DNA from: Eledone cirrhosa
Taxonomy: Eukaryota
Assembly (NCBI GenBank): GCA_964016885.1
Contig: OZ024740.1
Location: 335,110,001 to 335,174,000 of the forward strand
Length of the DNA stretch: 64,000 nucleotides
Reading direction: 5' to 3'
Made by a program: the position numbers and the translations under genes. Position 1 is the first letter of the stretch, and each line of letters begins with the position of its first letter. This document shows, piece after piece, positions 2,841-55,639 of this stretch. Below the pieces are notes generated by a model. It saw only the letters and a program-made list of their open reading frames with translations. It had not been told where the DNA came from and ran no database searches.

Positions 2841-3033
2841 AACGAAGTAAATGTGGTAAGGAACCAGGTGGACCATAACGCACCAAAGTACTCAATACTT
2901 ACGGTAGTAGAGTAGGTAATAGGAACGAGTACGACCCCGACAGCTGAGCTCAAGCCGTATCGACGGCTAATTCTGGACTGAATTAGCCGTCGAAACTGCT
3001 TGAGCTCAGCCGTCGGGGTCCTACTCGTTCCTA

Positions 3034-3034
<1 letters not shown>
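2841..3034 (-). mobile_element. PLE family A palindromic mini-copy (inverted pLTR end + tail)
   Basis: Arms 2919-2974 and 2980-3034; tail matches 22535-22615; TA-rich flanks. Confidence 0.82.
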
Positions 3035-3091
<57 letters not shown>

Positions 3092-3094
<3 letters not shown>

Positions 3095-3738
3095 CCACAG
3101 TAAGTAAAGTACTCCGTAGTTACGCCTGGGTACAATCGGGGGGTAACAACAGTAAGTAAAGTACTCAGTAGTTACGCGTGGGTTCAATCGGATATAGCCA
3201 CAGCAAGTAAGATACTCAGTTGTTACGCCTGGGATCAATCGGGAGTAACAACAGTAAGTAAAGTACTCCGTAGTTACGCCTGGGTTCAATCAGGAGTAAC
3301 CACAGTAAGTAAAGTACTCCGTAGTTACGCCAGGGTTCAATCGGGGGTAACCACAGTAAGTAAAGTACTCCGTAGTTACGCCTGGGTTCAATCGGGGGTA
3401 ACCACAGTAAGTAAAGTACTCAGTAGTTACGCCTGCGTTGAATGAAGGGGTAACCACAGTAAGTAAAGTACTCAGTAGTTACGGCTGGGTTCAATCGGGG
3501 CGTAACCACAGTAAGTAAAGTACTCAGTAGTTACGCCTGCGTTCAATCGGGGGGTAACCAAATTATGTAAAGTACTCAGTAGTTACGCCTGGGTTCAATC
3601 GAGAGTAACCACAGTAAGTAAAGTACTCAGTAGTTACGCCTGGGTTCAATCGGGGGTAACCACAGCAAATAAGATACTCAGTAGTTACGCCTGGGCTCAA
3701 TCGGGGGTAACCATAATAAGTAAAGTACTCAGTAGTTA
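3092..3738. repeat. Minisatellite, ~51-bp unit, ~12.5 copies
   Basis: Unit aaccacagtaagtaaagtactcagtagttacgcctgggttcaatcgggggt; period read from 3246/3297/3348. Confidence 0.95.
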
Positions 3739-4389
3739 GAAGGTGTGGGGGTGAATTGTGGCTTCAAGAACATCAACTTTGTCCGTTCCCTTCTCGTTTC
3801 AATTTGGATTGCCTCGGGAACGTAACCTTATTATGTAAGATGCTGTGTAATGAGAGCATGGCACTGGGTACTTGAAATCGCGTGGCGACTGTCGTAATAG
3901 AAATACATATTACAGCCTTATCAATAAAGAATGTTATGAATAACATCTGAAACTACTTCGTATTTTAAATATATATATATATACATATATATGTGTGTGT
4001 GCGTGTGTGTGTGTGTGTATTTATATATATATATGTGTGTGTGTGTGTGTTATATATATATATTGTTCAATCATCTTACCAGAAGCCTGACATTATTTAT
4101 GTAAGCGGACGGTACTTGATTTAGGAGCCGCAGAAACCCAAATACTGGATTTTACCAACCTTCCAGGGGTCCGGGTAAATTTTCAATACCGAATTACTTG
4201 ATCGTTTTTTTTTGGCTATGCGAATTATTGTTTAACCATCGTCTCAGTGTGTTTGGCGTTTAACGTTTGTTATAGCTCTGGTTCATCTGAACCATTGAGC
4301 ACTTGCCTCACATCTCGGAGGTTGTTTTTCGTTGTTTCGTGGACCGAATGCGAATCTCGATAATTTATGTTTGTTTATATATATATATA

Positions 4390-6590: not shown

Positions 6591-6632
<42 letters not shown>

Positions 6633-6637
<5 letters not shown>

Positions 6638-6825
6638 AACGAGTAGGACCCCGACGGCTGAGCTCAAGCCGTTTCGACGGCTAATTCTGGACCAGAATTA
6701 GCCGTCGAAACGGCTTGAGCTCAGCCGTCGGGGTCCTACTCGTTCCTATTACCCACTCTACTACCCTAAGTATTGAGTACTTTGGTGCGTTATGGTCCAC
6801 CTGGTTCCTTACCACATTTCCTCCG

Positions 6826-14920: not shown

Positions 14921-15309
14921 GTATATAAATGGACTTTGTATAGCTCCCTGTTGCTGTAAATTAATTAGCCGAAAAAGAAGTAATACGCAATTCACAATCT
15001 AATGAAATCTCACATGAACGGATCCTATGTGTAAAGCATTATCGGCTGTGGACATTGTGGTTTTATGGGATTATGTGTAGTGGGCACGGTAGAAAATATT
15101 TAGTCGTTAACCAATCGCCTGCTTCTGGTGTTTTAAGCAATAAAGGGTTTGAGTTAAATGTACTAGATCACCGACTGTGTAATGTAGTAATATTAACTAG
15201 CTAACACCGTGGATATTCCACGGTTTTCTTTGAAACAACACGCAACTATTAAAAATCAATATAACATTTTGGATGTTCTACTTATAAGTTATATATATAT
15301 ATATACAAT

Positions 15310-15510
15310 ATAGAAATGGCTTCTACAGGACTAGAACTGTTTCATTCGGAAAGTCGACTGTCGGCTTTCCTTTTGATTTCTATACGAATGAAACAGTTCT
15401 AGTCATGTAGAAGCCATTTCTACATTTCTTTACTACATATTTATATTCAGCTATACATTGAGTACCTTACTTACTGTGGTTACCCCCGATTGAACCCGGA
15501 ATAAACATAG
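15310..15510 (+). mobile_element. PLE-like palindrome + tail (family B)
   Basis: Arms 15311-15348 and 15385-15422; homologous to 49690-49830; HHR core decayed. Confidence 0.75.
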
Positions 15511-21325: not shown

Positions 21326-21619
21326 TTATAGCCCTAGTCTACCCCCCCCCCCCGGGTCATTATGGGGTTTGAGGGCGAGGTAAGTCCTACGTAATCGGTG
21401 GTTACATGCAGTAACCAGTTCATCTTTCTTGTTTAGGAGTTGGTCCGTCGAAAACAACATTTGTAATGTTTCCTCCGAGCATAAATTGCACGGACGGCGT
21501 CCTCCCGTGTAAGAGTTGGCTCTGGACAGTAATTTCCAAGTGAGATCATAGTTGATGTTGTTGTCCTTGAGGTCCCATATGTGGCCCGAAAGTGTAGTGG
21601 TGTGACGCCGGGCCGGGTT
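21326..21619 (-). pseudogene. C-terminal part of a PLE GIY-YIG endonuclease domain (Naiad-like signature)
   Basis: Manual translation NPARRHTTTLSGHIWDLKDNNINYDLTWKLLSRANSYTGGRRPCNLCSEETLQMLFSTDQLLNKKDELVTACNHR fits the PLE pattern LS.HIW.LK..W.I...CNLC.EE...LNK..E....C.H. Not in the ORF track. Confidence 0.85.
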
Positions 21620-22426
21620 TCTTCTTCCCTTTTTTGGGTGGGGTGGGGGTGGGTGTTCCTGTATTAATTTTCCGTTCTTTACTTTTACTTCGTACGATCT
21701 TTCATGTAGCTTGTATAAGACTTTTTGTTTCGTGGCGGTACCCTTAGAGTTAGCACTAGTATTTTTTTGCGGGACCCTGAATTATATTCTCGTACTAGTT
21801 TACTTTCTTGCACTGGGTGGTTGCTGGCCCTGTGATTGGGGTAGAAACCTTTATTATTTCGTGGTAGTCTCTTTAGTATTCTCCCCCCCCCTTTGTTGAC
21901 CCGTCACCGTACGATACACGCACTTATACCTCGTATAAGGGTCCCTTTATTTCCGTCCCACCTAGTTTATTTCTATTATTATTATTTATTTTTTTATTCT
22001 ACATTATATATATATATATATATAATTTTTTTTTAAATTCATTTATCTATTCCTTTATTCACTTATTTGTTTATTTATTTTTTTATGTATTTCTTTAGCC
22101 TAGCAATAGCGAGAGACTTAAGTCTTAGTAACCAGACTTTGCTTATTTTTTTTTTCTCTCTCAGTACCTTTTATAGTTTTACCCTCATTGTTCTACTTAC
22201 CGTTTCGACCTCCTCCCCCTCCCCCTCCCCAGTATCCTCTTTGACCTCACACCCAGCTGTAGCTGGCACTACCAACGCATGAATGGGTCTACTCCACCCT
22301 CTCCCCCTTTTTCTCCTACCGGCAGGTTTAGCTACCCCTTCCCCCACCAATTTGCCATCACAGATTTACTACTAACTTGTGATGTGACCAATCCTGGTGA
22401 TTATCTCTTTGACCATATATGGAATT

Positions 22427-22521
22427 ACCCCCTTGATAAGCTCGGCTATTTAAATACCAGAATAAATTTTCATTCAGTACAGAATTAGCCGTCGAAACGG
22501 CTTGAGCTCAGCCGTCGGGGT
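22427..22521 (+). ncRNA. Degenerate type I HHR of PLE family A
   Basis: ACCCC-CUUGAUAA(mutated)-..CGGCUA..UAGCCG..-GAAACGG..CCGUC-GGGGU. Confidence 0.62.
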
Positions 22522-24718
22522 CTTACTTGTTCATATTACCCACTCTACTACCCCAAGTATTGAGTACTTTGGTGCGTTATGGTCCACCTGGTTCCTTACC
22601 ACATTTCCTTCGTTATATATATATATAAGTGAGTGTGTTTGTATGTGTGCGTGCGTGTGTGCCTGTAAGTGTATGAGTTTATGTGTGATTTTATAAATAT
22701 ATATTTATATACTAGGTATATTAATATGGAATTTTACGCAAATTATGATAGGACCGTCGACAGTGATCGTCCTACGTATATGTTGCATGGAGGAAAACTG
22801 CATAGATTACTAGACTAAGACAAACTGACAAATTTCAAGTTCATATTTAGCGTATCTAATAGATAAACAAAATATAATTGTGTACTTCTTGTCATATCGC
22901 ATGATATAGATTTTAATTGGGCAGCCACTTAGGTACCAGTGGACGGATCAATCCTATCGCTATCAATCATAGCTTAGTTTCAGGTATGCTGACTGAAACG
23001 ATCCCAGTTTAAATGTAATAATATAATATGAATATTATAAACCAAGATTTAATATAAGTTGTTAAATCAAAATTTAATGCCAAAGAGAGGAAATTGGAAC
23101 ATTATCCTCTGAAAGCTCTTTAAACCTCAGGAAATGACTTTTACGTCCTGAACTATTGGACAGAAAGATAACAACAACAATAAAAAACAAAACAAAGATT
23201 ACCAGGTAACATACTTTTCGTTACCTCATCTTACAGTCCATTTTGCATTGTTTAGCATTCTATCTCGTTCAACGTTATATAAATATTTATGTTAATATAA
23301 GAGTTCACAACTAAGGATTTATATATGGTTAGAATTTTAATTTACTTTGAAGCATTTTTTTAAATATCATTCCTCGAAAAACTATATCTTAGTATATAGA
23401 TTTGATGAAAGAAGATATTGCAACGCGGGCGTTTCAAGACAGTAATTTCAAACATTCCCGTGGCAGAAATATATGTTGCAAACTGATTACAACGGGGAAT
23501 GTACAACTATGAATTAAAAATGAAATATATGGCTGACTACGAAAATGCATTAAAATTATTAAAGAGTGTAACATCTAAGATATTGCTTTGTTTTAAAATT
23601 ATCTACTTACAATTATTAAGACAGAACAATTATTTATGAAGGGTTAAAACAGGGTTGATTTAACTACACCATACTGAGATGACTGTGAACTTTTACGTGA
23701 CCATTGTACTAGCTAGAATTCGCACAATAATCTCCCTCATATCGCAGCGTAAGAAATCTATATAGTGTGGTGCTCAAAATTGAATATTCGTATCCTGAGA
23801 GAGAATAGCTTATACATATGTATTTATTTACTATATGAAGCTGGATTATAGTATCAAAATTGTTCTATATACATTGAGTATTACCCATCTTTTTCTAAAG
23901 TAAATTTCGTTTCTGTAAACTAGTTTCAAATTTGATCTCATATTTTTCCACAAATCGGATTCTCTGAAAAAATCTTAATCGACCAACATTTATTTATTTC
24001 CATCTGCTAGTCATTTGCACCTTCACCACATTGGTATTTAGTTAGTAAATTAGTAAAATTTAATTGACAATCTCGGAAAACTTTACAAGAGTCCTTAAGA
24101 GTCATTTTCCTTCATTAAAAATCAAGTCATTAACTGAAACAGTAGAAAAAATAAATGACTGAAACGAAATGCAATAAAATGAATAAAGAATCCATTATCT
24201 TTTAAAACGAACAATGACTAATATTATTCATGCATTTTATAAAATCATTTACTAGAGGTTTCCTGGAGCTTGTAAATCTTTAAAATTCGATAAAGTAGCC
24301 CTCAACTTTTGACAGCTCACATTAGAGCAATTTACAGCAAGTGAAAATTATCGCTGATGCTCTCATGAAATGCTAAATTGTTTTTACATTATTACACCAA
24401 TTTACTTTAGTTAAATGAAGTTGCATTTCAAGCGAACGTTGCAACGAACTTTATGTTAGCCGTTATTGTTGCTATTGCTGTTGTTAATTCATCTCAATTT
24501 TTTCGTTTATTTTTTTTTTAACCTGGCAGATTCGACAACCTGTCTAATGCAACATCTTTCGTCAGCCAAGTAGGTTGTGAATGTCAAAATATGATTCGAA
24601 TAGACGGGATTTGAAGAAATAGCAACAATAAGACGAGAACGTAATACTTGGTATAAATCTAACTATAAAATACGATCACTCAACAGCATAGAATGTATAT
24701 GAATGTCATTCTACTCAC

Positions 24719-49700: not shown

Positions 49701-49752
49701 GGCTTTCCTGATGAATTCTTTCGAATGAAACAGTTCTAGTCTTGTAGAAGCC
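49701..49752 (+). ncRNA. Type I HHR, intact core (family B)
   Basis: GGCUUUC-CUGAUGA-AUUC-UUUC-GAAU-GAAA-CAG..UUG-UA-GAAGCC. Confidence 0.85.
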
Positions 49753-50302
49753 ATTTCTATATTAAATATTTATTCTCTGCTATGTACCTTATTTATTGTG
49801 GTTACCCTCGATCGAACCCGAGATAAACATATATATATATATATATATAAATTTGTTCCATTTTTATCCTCAACTTTTTTCTTATTTCTCCCAATATCTC
49901 TAATATGACTTCGTTCTCCTTACGGGAGGCCATTAATTTGGCCTTATACCCTGGAGCTCTAGTAAGTGAGAGTCAAGGTATTTTAATTTTCATCCACAAA
50001 AATCAATTTTTCCCTGCTACTGCGATCTCGTTTTGCACAAATACATGCACTGTCAGTTGTCCATTTATTTCTAGTCATATATTTTTACATCTTTATCTCA
50101 TCGTTTGTCAAAAGTAAACTGTAAATTCTCTTCTCCGTTCTTTCTTTGTAGTCTCAGATGTATCTTTCCAACAGAGCACTCGTCCGATCTGCAGCGCGAA
50201 CACTGGCTATGCAACTATAATTTGGTTTGTGTAACTGTGTCCATTTTCTATTAACATTGTATATATATATGCATGTATATTAAATATATATATGTTAAAT
50301 AT

Positions 50303-51677: not shown

Positions 51678-54600
51678 TCAGATATTCAGGACGTATCGGA
51701 GGGTTCTTGCCGTTCCAAGCAAGCATGCCTTTTGAAGCGTTCCAAAAAGCGTGAAGGGGCCGATTTTCTTTAACCATCCCTGGAAACCTTTGGAGATAGT
51801 CCCCAGTGCGCCTATGACAATCGGGATCACTTTGACTTCATGGCAGTTCCAAATCCTTTTCACCTCCCACTTTAGGTCCTGGTATCGGTTAATTTTCTCC
51901 CTCTCCTTCTCTTGCACTCTCGTGTCGAACGGGCAGGCCACATCCACAATCAGGCACGATCTTTTTTCTTTGTCCACATCCACTAGGTCAGGTCTATTGT
52001 GTTCCAGTTTTTTGTCCGTCTGTATCCTAAAATCCCACAGCACCTTCACCTGACTGTTCTCCATCACCGCCTCTGGCCTATGCTCATACCATTTCTCAGA
52101 ATGTGGTAGATTGTTTACTTTGCACAGGTGCCAGTGGATCACCCTGCCCATCACATCGTGTCTCCAGCCCTTATAGTGGGTCTGGGCTAGGTGTTTACAC
52201 TCGGACACAATGTGAGCCACAGTCTCCTCTCTCTCTCCACAGATCCTGCACAGTGGGCTAGCCTCCTCCTTGTAGATATGGTGCTTCAACCACTTCGTTT
52301 TGAGGGCCTGCTCCTGTGCAGCCATTAGCATTCCTTCTGTAGCCTTTTTGAGGTCTCCTCTTCTCAACCAGTTCCATGTCTGTGGATCTCTAAATTCAGT
52401 TTTCTCAAAGAAGGTACTATGAAGGGATTTTCCCTTAAGGCTGCTCTTCCTCCTTGATGTTATTTCCTCCTTGGGTATCCCCTGGCCTACTGTCCCCTCC
52501 TTCAGTACAGCTCTGAGCATTGGCTCCTTACTATAGGTCACGTATTTGTATAGGTTGTTTTTCTCCATCTGAACACAGTCCTCTATGCTGATAAGACCTC
52601 TTCCACCCTCAGATCTCCTTAGGTAGAGTCTATCGACATCACTCCTCTTGTGGAACATGTTGTAGATAGTCAATAGCTTCCTAGTCTTCCTATCCATTTC
52701 TTTTTGTTCACCAACATTCCATCTCAGAATTCCCGCACTGTACCTAATAATAGACACAGCTCGGGAATTTATTGCGCTTATGGCATTTCTGCTGTTCAGA
52801 TGTGACTTCAATACGCTCCTTACTCTCCGAATGTATTCAGTTCTTAACAATTCCTTCATTTTTTTGTTCTTTATGCCATCTGCCTCCAGAACGCCCAAAT
52901 ACTTGTATCCTTCCTCAGAGTCAATTTCCTTTATCATCTCACCTGTTGGTATCTGGATCCCGTTACTTCTGCTCAACCTACCCCTCCTCATCACAATGAC
53001 TCCACATTTACCAATACCAAACTGCATACATATATCACTGCTGAAAATACGGACAGTGTCAACAAGCACATCCAACTCCTTCTCACTTTTCCCGAAGAGC
53101 TTAAGATCGTCCATGAAGAGGAGGTGATTGATGGTAAGCTCTCCCCTTCCCAACTTGTATCCTGCTCTCACTTTTCGCAGCATAATGGTCAAGGGCATCA
53201 GGGCAAGGACAAACAACAGAGGGGACAGGCTATCTCCCTGGAAGATACCTCTCTTGATCTTCACGCTTCCCAAGGATACTCCAGTTGATGTCAACTCTGT
53301 CTCCCAGGACCCCATACTCCTGCCCAGCAACTGTCTGATGTTATCTGCCACCCTGAAGATCTCCAGGCTTTTGGTGATCCAGGAATGAGGCACCATGTCA
53401 AATGCCTTTCTGTAGTCTATCCATCCCATGGCAAGGTCAGTGTGTCTCCTCCTGCAATTCCCCATTACCATCTTATCAATAAGCAACTGGTCCTTTGTAC
53501 CACGTGACTTCTTTCGGCATCCTTTCTGTTCGTCCGGCAACAAGTTGTTTGTGTGGAGGTGATGGTAGATTTCCTCAGACACAATGCTCGTCAACAGTTT
53601 CCACATTACGGGCAGACATGTGATAGGTCTATAGTTGGTAACATCATTACCCTTGATTCGGTCTTTCATTATCAGAACTGTGGTACCTTTTGTCAACCAC
53701 TCTGGCACCTCACCCGACACCAAGCAGTCATTGAACATGGCCGTCAGCTTCGGGTGGAGGGATGTTAAATGTTTAATCCAATACCCCTGCACACCATCTG
53801 GGCCTGGTGATTTCCAGTTGGTTAGTTTTTTGGCTTGCCCCTTAAGAGTTTCAACTGTGATACTCAAATCAGTCTGTTGCTGTGCCTGCTCACCGATCTC
53901 CCTCTGTACTGTCTCAATCCACCCTGCCTGGGCATTGTGCCTAACATCCTGCTCCCATATTCCTCTCCAGAATGTTTTAGCTTGTTCCGCCCCAGGGATC
54001 AAGTCGTTGCCTCTTTCTTTGCCCTCAAGCTGTCCAAACAGCATCTTCTGGTTGTTGTCGAACATGCGGTTCTGTTTATACTCACTGACTCTGTTCTCGT
54101 ATCGCCTGATTTTGGCACTCTTTGCTACAATGCGTTGCTTCAATTCCTCTATGATAATATTTAGCTTTTTACTCCTAGTTTTGTATTTTATTTCCAGTCT
54201 ATTTTTAGTGCCTATGTTTTTTAGTGTCCCATTCAGTAGTGACTCAAGCTTTCCTATGTCATTTCTCATTTCCCCGATTTGCCCACTCAGTCGCTTCTTC
54301 CACCACGGCTCTGCTCTTTCTTGTCTGTTGTTTCCTCTCGCTTTTATACCAAGTAGTTTCCTCACCGTATTTGCTGTTGCTTTGAGGATATTGTTGCACT
54401 GGTGAAGACTCCTCGCCTCAAGGTATGGGATGACTTTGTTTACCTTAGCTGTTGTTTCTTTTAACTTTTTCCTGTCTACAAATCTTAGGTTCATAGGTCT
54501 CCCACTATCATTGTTCAACTCATCTACCACTAAATTTAGGATGTCAACCGAATCTTGTCCTAGCCCGTCAGCATTCATCCCCTCAGTGGCCGTATCTCTG

Positions 54601-55070
54601 TTCCAGGTATTATTTATCTCAGTATTCAGATCATTGTCTGCTTCGGGTGGTTCCTCCGTTCTCAGGACCTCCTCACCTTCATTTCCCGCCGGCTCGCTTG
54701 TCTGGCATACTACACCCGCCATCTCCAAGCCATTCTCTCTGCTCAGTTCCTCCAGTTCCAGCTCGCTTATCCACCCATTAGTTCTTATTACCCGAGCCTG
54801 CCCGGCCAATTTTTGTTCATCTAATTTAAATAAACCAATCTCGTTCCAGATGTTATGCATCCGTCTCCTGTAGCCCCTCTCCTTGGGGTTACTTTTCAGG
54901 TAGCATTGCATAACAGTTCTATTCAATTCTTTCGTCCAGTTGGTTCTGGCCCCTTTCCTTCTTCTTCTTCCTCCAACATCAGCAGTATTTGGTTGACAGT
55001 CAGGTTCCTGCTGCTGAGCCAGGGGGCACCTGTTGGGTGAGAGTCTGTCACATGACGTTCTAGTCTCCAT
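51678..55070 (-). CDS. Intact single ORF of an R4/Dong-like non-LTR retrotransposon (RT + CCHC + restriction-like endonuclease), 1130 aa
   Basis: N-terminal WTKELN..MQCY..GYRRRMHNIW; RT motifs KSPGPDG, NYRPITCL, DYRKAFD, GIFQGDSLSP, FMDDLK; zinc knuckle CRIC..ETVAHIVSEC; RHD; RLE HNRPD..DVACP..KINRY. Confidence 0.96.
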   Translation of the reverse strand: METRTSCDRLSPNRCPLAQQQEPDCQPNTADVGGRRRRKGARTNWTKELNRTVMQCYLKSNPKERGYRRRMHNIWNEIGLFKLDEQKLAGQARVIRTNGWISELELEELSRENGLEMAGVVCQTSEPAGNEGEEVLRTEEPPEADNDLNTEINNTWNRDTATEGMNADGLGQDSVDILNLVVDELNNDSGRPMNLRFVDRKKLKETTAKVNKVIPYLEARSLHQCNNILKATANTVRKLLGIKARGNNRQERAEPWWKKRLSGQIGEMRNDIGKLESLLNGTLKNIGTKNRLEIKYKTRSKKLNIIIEELKQRIVAKSAKIRRYENRVSEYKQNRMFDNNQKMLFGQLEGKERGNDLIPGAEQAKTFWRGIWEQDVRHNAQAGWIETVQREIGEQAQQQTDLSITVETLKGQAKKLTNWKSPGPDGVQGYWIKHLTSLHPKLTAMFNDCLVSGEVPEWLTKGTTVLIMKDRIKGNDVTNYRPITCLPVMWKLLTSIVSEEIYHHLHTNNLLPDEQKGCRKKSRGTKDQLLIDKMVMGNCRRRHTDLAMGWIDYRKAFDMVPHSWITKSLEIFRVADNIRQLLGRSMGSWETELTSTGVSLGSVKIKRGIFQGDSLSPLLFVLALMPLTIMLRKVRAGYKLGRGELTINHLLFMDDLKLFGKSEKELDVLVDTVRIFSSDICMQFGIGKCGVIVMRRGRLSRSNGIQIPTGEMIKEIDSEEGYKYLGVLEADGIKNKKMKELLRTEYIRRVRSVLKSHLNSRNAISAINSRAVSIIRYSAGILRWNVGEQKEMDRKTRKLLTIYNMFHKRSDVDRLYLRRSEGGRGLISIEDCVQMEKNNLYKYVTYSKEPMLRAVLKEGTVGQGIPKEEITSRRKSSLKGKSLHSTFFEKTEFRDPQTWNWLRRGDLKKATEGMLMAAQEQALKTKWLKHHIYKEEASPLCRICGEREETVAHIVSECKHLAQTHYKGWRHDVMGRVIHWHLCKVNNLPHSEKWYEHRPEAVMENSQVKVLWDFRIQTDKKLEHNRPDLVDVDKEKRSCLIVDVACPFDTRVQEKEREKINRYQDLKWEVKRIWNCHEVKVIPIVIGALGTISKGFQGWLKKIGPFTLFGTLQKACLLGTARTLRYVLNI

Positions 55071-55639
55071 TTCACCGTTATTCGAACTGTTTATGTTCGA
55101 TATTTAAACACTCTTATCGAGGATTGGCGATTGTATGTTTACATAGCCATCTGTGGATCCGCCATCCCACTTGGCCCTTGTGTGGCATTATCACCACGCT
55201 GTATACGGACACACATAAACAAACAAACACACGGGCAGAAAGGGCCCCAAAAATGAATAAGCATAAGTTTCATTGTAATGTAGTATTCGAATGTCTGACT
55301 TAGTTTTTGTTTTTTAAGTTTTACTTTTTCCCCCCTCTTCTCTGTCCGTCCGCCTGCTTCTCTCTTCATTCTTATTTTCTTTACGTTTTGGGGGTTTCTT
55401 TTTTTGTTTTTGTTTTTCTCTGTTTTTCTCGTTTTTTACTGTTGTTGCTGTGCTGCTTTTGTTGTTTGTTTTTTCTTTTTTCTTTTGAGTCTATCCATAT
55501 ATTTTGATGCCTTCCTCTTTGTTAGTAGTAGGAATTCTATAATGTGGAAGTGGTAGCCAGCAGAGACTGGCGGCGTTGGCGATACTGAGACAGTGGTGGT
55601 GGTGATGTCGATACCGAGGCAGTGGTGGCGGTGATGCGA

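Follow-up and report, generated by a model that had tools for sequence, protein, structure and literature searches.

The window analysed here, a stretch of 64,000 nucleotides from Eledone cirrhosa, contains near its beginning a short tandem array, which an earlier note had described as a 51-bp satellite at 3092..3738 that starts directly from a (TA)n tract. Both statements are confirmed: TRF reports period 51, 12.6 copies, 87% matches and a score of 985 (3092-3738), and the array abuts (TA)31 at 3032-3093. Split on the minus strand, the array consists of 12 complete units, each 51-52 nt long, plus a partial one that enters the (TA)31 tract. With units of 10-100 bp, up to ~100 copies and head-to-tail order as the range of minisatellites, the array fits that class. 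The features that matter for its interpretation are the following.

3092..3738, minus strand (the sense of family B): minisatellite array, from TRF, unit split and alignment
3333..3370, minus strand: one 38-nt core, equal to the distal family B tail (37/38 to 15460-15497)
3371..3383, plus strand: one 13-nt filler, of which 8 nt are family E, 2 nt are assigned to neither family and 3 nt are B
3032..3093, no strand: (TA)31 tract, at which the array stops in mid-core (TRF)
2851..3035, no strand: family A Penelope-type element (window paralogs at 6632-6817, 22472-22604 and others)
3731..3960, plus strand: family E copy, 5'-truncated and internally deleted, with a decayed ribozyme core (48 matches of 77-87% in genome G000 besides itself)
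15307..15507, plus strand: family B copy with inverted arm, direct arm, broken hammerhead core and tail (core match 15460-15497)
49701..49830, plus strand: family B copy with an intact type I hammerhead at 49701-49752 (core at 49708) and a diverged tail at 49784-49819
L074:8630-9026 (G000:C4:100863630-100864026, ~100.86 Mb): sister array of 50 bp x 8 inside a family B element

In the sense of the element, the window array ends at the TA tract, where it breaks off inside a core, without the normal B 3' end. The family A element is its neighbour across this tract and lies outside the array unit. A hand-written descriptor finds no hammerhead core in the array, and no function is indicated for it.

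The earlier note had derived the unit from the extreme 3' tail of a hammerhead-bearing Penelope-like element (PLE), which is correct for most of its length. The reverse complement of the unit matches 15460-15497 over 37/38 nt and, more loosely, 49784-49819 over 31/36 nt, and its core is 100% identical to many dispersed family B tails. The hammerhead core of the family B copy at 15360 is broken; the tail at 49784-49819 follows an intact one, as had been claimed (type I core at 49708 by descriptor, without an Rfam match). Hammerhead-bearing family B thus supplies 38-41 nt of the unit, including 3 nt from a tail variant ending AGG, whose A adjoins the core in 15/90 listed B tails, but 10 of the 13 non-core nt are not family B. 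The matched part is also not the extreme tail, since most B copies run ~10 nt further beyond the core before (TA)n, and 82 of 90 listed single tails reach at least 7 nt past it.

In G000 (3.0 Gb), a 31-nt piece of the core occurs in 1,615 exact copies. Family B copies display a hammerhead, 5' truncation and inverted 5' arms, and they end at either of two alternative 3' ends, one without a tail and one with a tail of ~66-70 nt; among 90 single tails (the first 90 matches listed, each of them on contig C1), 77 have a TA run behind them. The hand-written descriptor recognized an intact type I hammerhead core in 15/90 tail-bearing copies, and Rfam scans gave no hammerhead match, only microsatellite noise. 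An optional tail past the pLTR end, 5' truncation, an inverted 5'-truncated arm, a hammerhead and a (TA)n bias are described as hallmarks of PLEs (PMC8557442), and the PLE tail is described as the stretch between two internal reverse transcriptase (RT) start sites (PMC11167929). Family B likewise combines optional tail, 5' truncation, inverted arm, type I hammerhead and (TA)n bias, yet its tail of ~66-70 nt exceeds the 30-40 nt given there for known PLEs (PMC8557442; PMC11167929). Unlike PLEs, it has no cognate RT-GIY-YIG ORF joined to it in 50 loci: no coding sequence is common upstream in sets of 20 and 30 loci, and all 30 copies with the 5'-most B segment begin in TA/TG-rich sequence without a common coding flank. 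Pfam RVT_1 and GIY-YIG matches do occur in ORFs near B copies. We considered the RT-GIY-YIG ORFs near B at C4, L089 and L091 as B's own and rejected them, as they have their own ends and belong to separate families. Since 50 loci hold no B ORF and the neighbouring RT-GIY-YIG ORFs have own ends, family B is a PLE-type, apparently non-autonomous element.

Several further observations concern these elements. Beside the B element at C4, a near full-length PLE encoding RT together with a GIY-YIG domain at the C terminus, with one frameshift, sits in the TA tract at L074:9418 to L075:2565 (G000:C4:100864418-100867565) and has its own 56-nt direct terminal repeats. Different Penelope-type families stack in the same (TA)n tracts (L089 and many other loci), so that a non-autonomous element can be falsely linked to a neighbouring ORF. 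Families A, B and E are hammerhead families that are dissimilar apart from a tail motif, ATTGAGTRC, which by eye is accompanied in all three by a possible ACTC/GAGT stem (window 2886-2900 and 15455-15466; E paralogs L098, L104 and L114); motif and stem are a candidate recognition element for RT or endonuclease. A possible terminal tail hairpin, compared at window 15489-15500 and 49808-49823, presents a compensatory change, CCCG/CGGG in most copies and CTCG/CGAG at 49.8 kb. Elsewhere in the window, the minus strand contains an uninterrupted 1,141-aa non-LTR retrotransposon frame with RT and a C-terminal endonuclease-like region (51678-55103), of which several decayed relatives lie at 26-37 kb and 58-64 kb, and a fragment that looks like the endonuclease end, at the C terminus, of a Penelope-like ORF, with no Pfam match at E 0.01 (21326-21781).

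The larger part of the window filler corresponds to the family E copy that adjoins the array, in opposite orientation to the B core. Family E is a second hammerhead-type family, and its relatives restore the ribozyme core letters at 3847 and 3849. Array and E copy overlap by 8 nt, which close the array and open the E copy. In the comparison with E paralogs from 3731 onwards, 4/24 of which extend to the junction region, 13/14 nt match, a result equalled by 3/20,000 shuffles, and the first 8 of these 14 nt are the filler of the window units. The first base of this E-derived piece differs between window units. A genome-wide search for the window core-filler junction gave 10 matches, all 10 in the window array. 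B tail and E lie head to head, an arrangement that may be reminiscent of twin priming.

One might instead derive the window filler by mutation, either from a B end or from a fold-back copy of the core, with the array joined to E later via a chance 8-nt microhomology. The filler pairs with the core over ~10 bp, G-U pairs included, and an RNA fold of two units reaches z -4.6 with this pairing; the DNA fold gives z -1.5, and the stability of the units as DNA hairpins is unremarkable (z -1.1 to -1.6). By eye, 9/13 nt also resemble a B end-to-start junction. However, such an origin would need 3-4 substitutions in 10 nt beside 41 nt that match the B variant exactly, two of the needed substitutions fall on E letters, and flank capture is seen at the second array, described below. 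We consider it decidedly unlikely.

The earlier note would have seen support in many independent arrays in the same register, which the searches did not find. A three-unit DNA query, for which 40 of 1,765 candidates were scored, gave multi-unit matches only at the window and at C4, and an exact search for a core end followed by a core start gave 13 matches, 6 in the window and 7 at C4. The 51-bp unit is single-locus and two arrays were found in all, against 1,615 exact cores. As the pattern searches were exact and the DNA searches scored 40 candidates, diverged arrays may be missed. No sequencing run contained half of the words searched for, none of four sets of short contigs bridges the window array, and no read spans either array. 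Two arrays in ~80 kb of tail cores are, by a rough comparison, no excess over the ~20 distinct complex minisatellites besides C4 (25 TRF rows) in 393 kb of repeat-selected loci. These other minisatellites, with units of 21-64 bp, include L017:1791-2637, L114:1-295, L082:713-1089, L075:9013-10000 and L026:1917-2458; the arrays at L017 and L114 resemble a common dispersed repeat, so minisatellites derived from transposable elements (TEs) appear to be routine in this genome.

The array at C4 comprises 8 tail cores and seven identical units of 50 bp, whose filler is 12 nt long, and combines the 38-nt core of the window array with another filler. Its host B element is preserved on both sides, with a hammerhead upstream of the array and the normal B end downstream. 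The filler is made up of an 8-nt direct and a 10-nt inverted copy of the flank, overlapping by 5 nt. Their source is a hairpin (z -3.3) just outside the TA target, 5-25 nt from it, in single-copy DNA with one match in the genome. None of 20,000 random windows and none of 20,000 shuffled fillers equalled this match, and 50/20,000 shuffled fillers could be covered by two shorter flank pieces. The C4 unit demonstrates that flank capture happens. Since the fillers are local DNA at each of the two loci, both units were assembled in place and not from a common RNA.

These results also bear on the direction of descent. If family B had acquired its tail by capturing a pre-existing ordinary satellite, this would account for the sequence match and nothing further. 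The core is present in at least 1,600 dispersed tails, where it is embedded in a longer tail with the ATTGAGTRC motif common to A and E, and the only two arrays found are short and have different fillers. We therefore regard capture as extremely improbable; with 1,615 dispersed cores, the direction from tail to satellite assumed by the earlier note stands.

Its central proposal, repeated RT copying of the tail alone or of a small circular template, is not supported. In its favour, the core is tail-derived, PLE RTs are described as the closest relatives of TERT (PMC8557442, PMC12632851), and both PLEs and retrozymes have been suggested to use circular templates (PMC4209133). If such an RNA were copied in telomerase-like or rolling-circle fashion, the fillers of locus-specific DNA that is absent from B would still need an explanation, and the unit lacks a hammerhead that could cut and circularise it. 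Exact pattern searches of the genome found no tandem tails at periods 23-36 and no whole-tail tandems at periods 61-70, and the same unit occurs at no second locus. Contrary to the expectation that unit boundaries are fixed at the PLE tail ends, the unit ends match neither genomic 3' end: the core begins ~26 nt beyond the first B 3' end, and 7-10 nt remain between its own end and the second. Because of these offsets the unit is not a start-to-start tail; it is a sub-part of the B tail, whereas the PLE tail spans two start sites (PMC11167929), and its ends differ from genomic RT start sites. With local fillers, no whole-tail tandem and DNA-level turnover after insertion, copying of a tail-only or circular RNA is very improbable as the origin of the array.

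Tails copied in more than one pass do exist. When complete tail ends with a partial tail behind them were searched for, there was one match, a two-pass B tail on the minus strand of L226:1490-1570 with a 41-nt period and boundaries unlike those of both arrays, and L123:1470-1580 carries a three-pass family A tail with pieces of 24, 25 and 54 nt; the family A control search gave 3 matches and no regular array. Both multi-pass tails stop at the normal tail end and look like RT re-initiation. Such tails are rare and of unequal length, and the three B tail duplications at the window, C4 and L226 have three different junctions. L226 and L123 show that seeds of the two-copy type arise.

How the arrays grew can be judged from differences among their units. 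The window units differ from the column majority by 6.5%, with a mean pairwise identity of 88%. In non-CpG columns, the 12 units have 15 variant pairs in common where 4.8-8.5 would be expected (P 0.0007-0.04); three changes are common to units 2 and 11 (P 0.003-0.018). The excess of variant sharing disappears when every column is counted and CpG sites are given a 5-10-fold rate (P 0.14-0.58). The window units are not star-like. At C4, all 7 inner units are identical in the assembly sequence and the terminal unit has 3 differences in ~47, while the host element differs from the majority of its paralogs at 7/283 sites (2.5%). For inner units as old as the host element P is about 2e-4, and they look younger than it. 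Common variants among window units and identical inner units within a 2.5%-diverged element together indicate that insertion came first and the expansion or homogenisation of the two arrays later.

Could the arrays nevertheless have been written mostly in one step, by a PLE RT that cycled between tail RNA and short local DNA during insertion, with later conversion reshuffling the variants? Two independent arrays with common core boundaries are consistent with this, multi-pass tails exist, and PLE RT is described as starting internally at the tail (PMC11167929). The C4 filler, derived from DNA 5-25 nt off the TA target, is what an insertion-time event would leave. Conversion following such an origin would equally yield common variants and homogeneity. 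Against it, one and the same two- or three-way junction would have had to form again 7-12 times with single-base precision, whereas the multi-pass tails found are unequal (24, 25 and 54 nt at L123). The younger appearance of the inner C4 units and the window units, which are not star-like, also speak against synthesis at once. We judge synthesis of most of the array in a single step to be unlikely.

The core boundaries are similar in the two arrays, within 1 nt at the 5' and within 3 nt at the 3' side (n=2). The idea of boundaries fixed across loci holds for C4, whose core boundaries agree within 0-3 nt, but fails at L226, which has other boundaries, and fillers differ. Single tails seldom have these ends: 1/90 listed start at the array core start and ~4/90 listed end that early. 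No truncation hot spot is seen at the core start among the listed tails, with 1/90 exactly there and 3/90 when starts as much as 2 nt inside the core are included. The core start coincides with the loop-stem border of a predicted 5-bp tail hairpin, whose 3' arm is within the unit, and lies just after ATT, the motif described as preferred by the anole PLE endonuclease (PMC11167929). By eye, we saw no alignment repeat flanking the core. Part of the agreement is ascertainment, as our searches favoured arrays holding the whole core; with n=2 and this bias, the common boundaries are a lead only. PLE RT might halt at the conserved tail hairpin, jump to flanking DNA, re-enter at the terminal stem-loop of the tail and cycle, giving tail-plus-flank arrays in a single reaction. 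This is quite unlikely; if true, telomerase's closest relative among the retroelements would have a primitive capacity for repeat addition, and nature would offer an example of a telomerase-related retroelement RT that synthesizes iteratively.

Among known systems, TE-derived minisatellites come closest. For VNTRs derived from Alu, B1 or LTRs, the Haber-Louis model (PMC6947457), and for squamate SINE-derived satellites a similar account (PMC10702118), describe a first duplication between short repeats followed by slippage, conversion or unequal exchange. Like these, our arrays are short (8-13 units), comprise part of a high-copy retroelement and have mixed homogeneity; they differ in coming from a Penelope-type tail, in joining this tail within each unit to neighbouring DNA specific to the locus, and in showing no sign of having spread to further loci. 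Non-LTR retrozymes likewise are tandem repeats from a PLE-type terminal region, but are described as dispersed families with a hammerhead per unit (bioRxiv 10.64898/2026.07.22.740005; PMC4209133); the window unit has no hammerhead and is single-locus, and we rejected this assignment. Telomerase and DRT10 also produce head-to-tail repeats of a short part of an RT-associated RNA, and the RTs are akin; as described, both depend on an RNA that carries an alignment repeat and a template boundary, and their units are free of filler (PMC12632851), whereas every window unit holds foreign local DNA. Repeat addition of this type was rejected on account of the foreign filler and the lack of a common unit or register at many independent sites. 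SD-MMEJ by polymerase theta leaves fillers of direct and inverted (snap-back) copies beside a break, and the C4 filler, with its direct and snap-back copies of adjacent sequence, is alike (PMC2943611). This likeness, seen in sequence, covers the seed step only, for which it would supply a candidate polymerase.

Our best reading is that the arrays are locus-born, transposon-derived minisatellites. For the window, we hold with good confidence that the array is a single-locus minisatellite built from a B tail and 8 bases of E, which was likely seeded by a template switch at the insertion junction and likely grew at the DNA level. In the first step, during or after insertion, a polymerase would copy the tail, briefly jump to adjacent DNA and re-enter the tail, leaving two direct repeats of 38-41 nt, 10-12 nt apart. 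This could be the PLE RT or a host end-joining polymerase; given the multi-pass tails at L226 and L123, RT re-start may have made the first duplication, and an RT jump onto target DNA would presumably resemble an SD-MMEJ filler. Slippage, unequal exchange or conversion between the repeats would then multiply core and filler to 8-13 copies. In the window only, the outer end of the array and the normal B 3' end would finally have been lost at the TA tract.

We found no report of PLE-tail minisatellites in a literature search that covered mostly papers open without subscription; according to the retrozyme preprint, matches between portions of PLEs and satellites had been noticed before (bioRxiv 10.64898/2026.07.22.740005). 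As read here, the loci capture in clean form how a minisatellite is born at insertion junctions of Penelope-type elements, with a filler that dates and places the first duplication. The three loci would represent successive stages, namely two passes, a fresh array of 8 and an aged array of 13. Though not a new system, they are useful for studies of PLE integration, as they hint that tail copying can restart.
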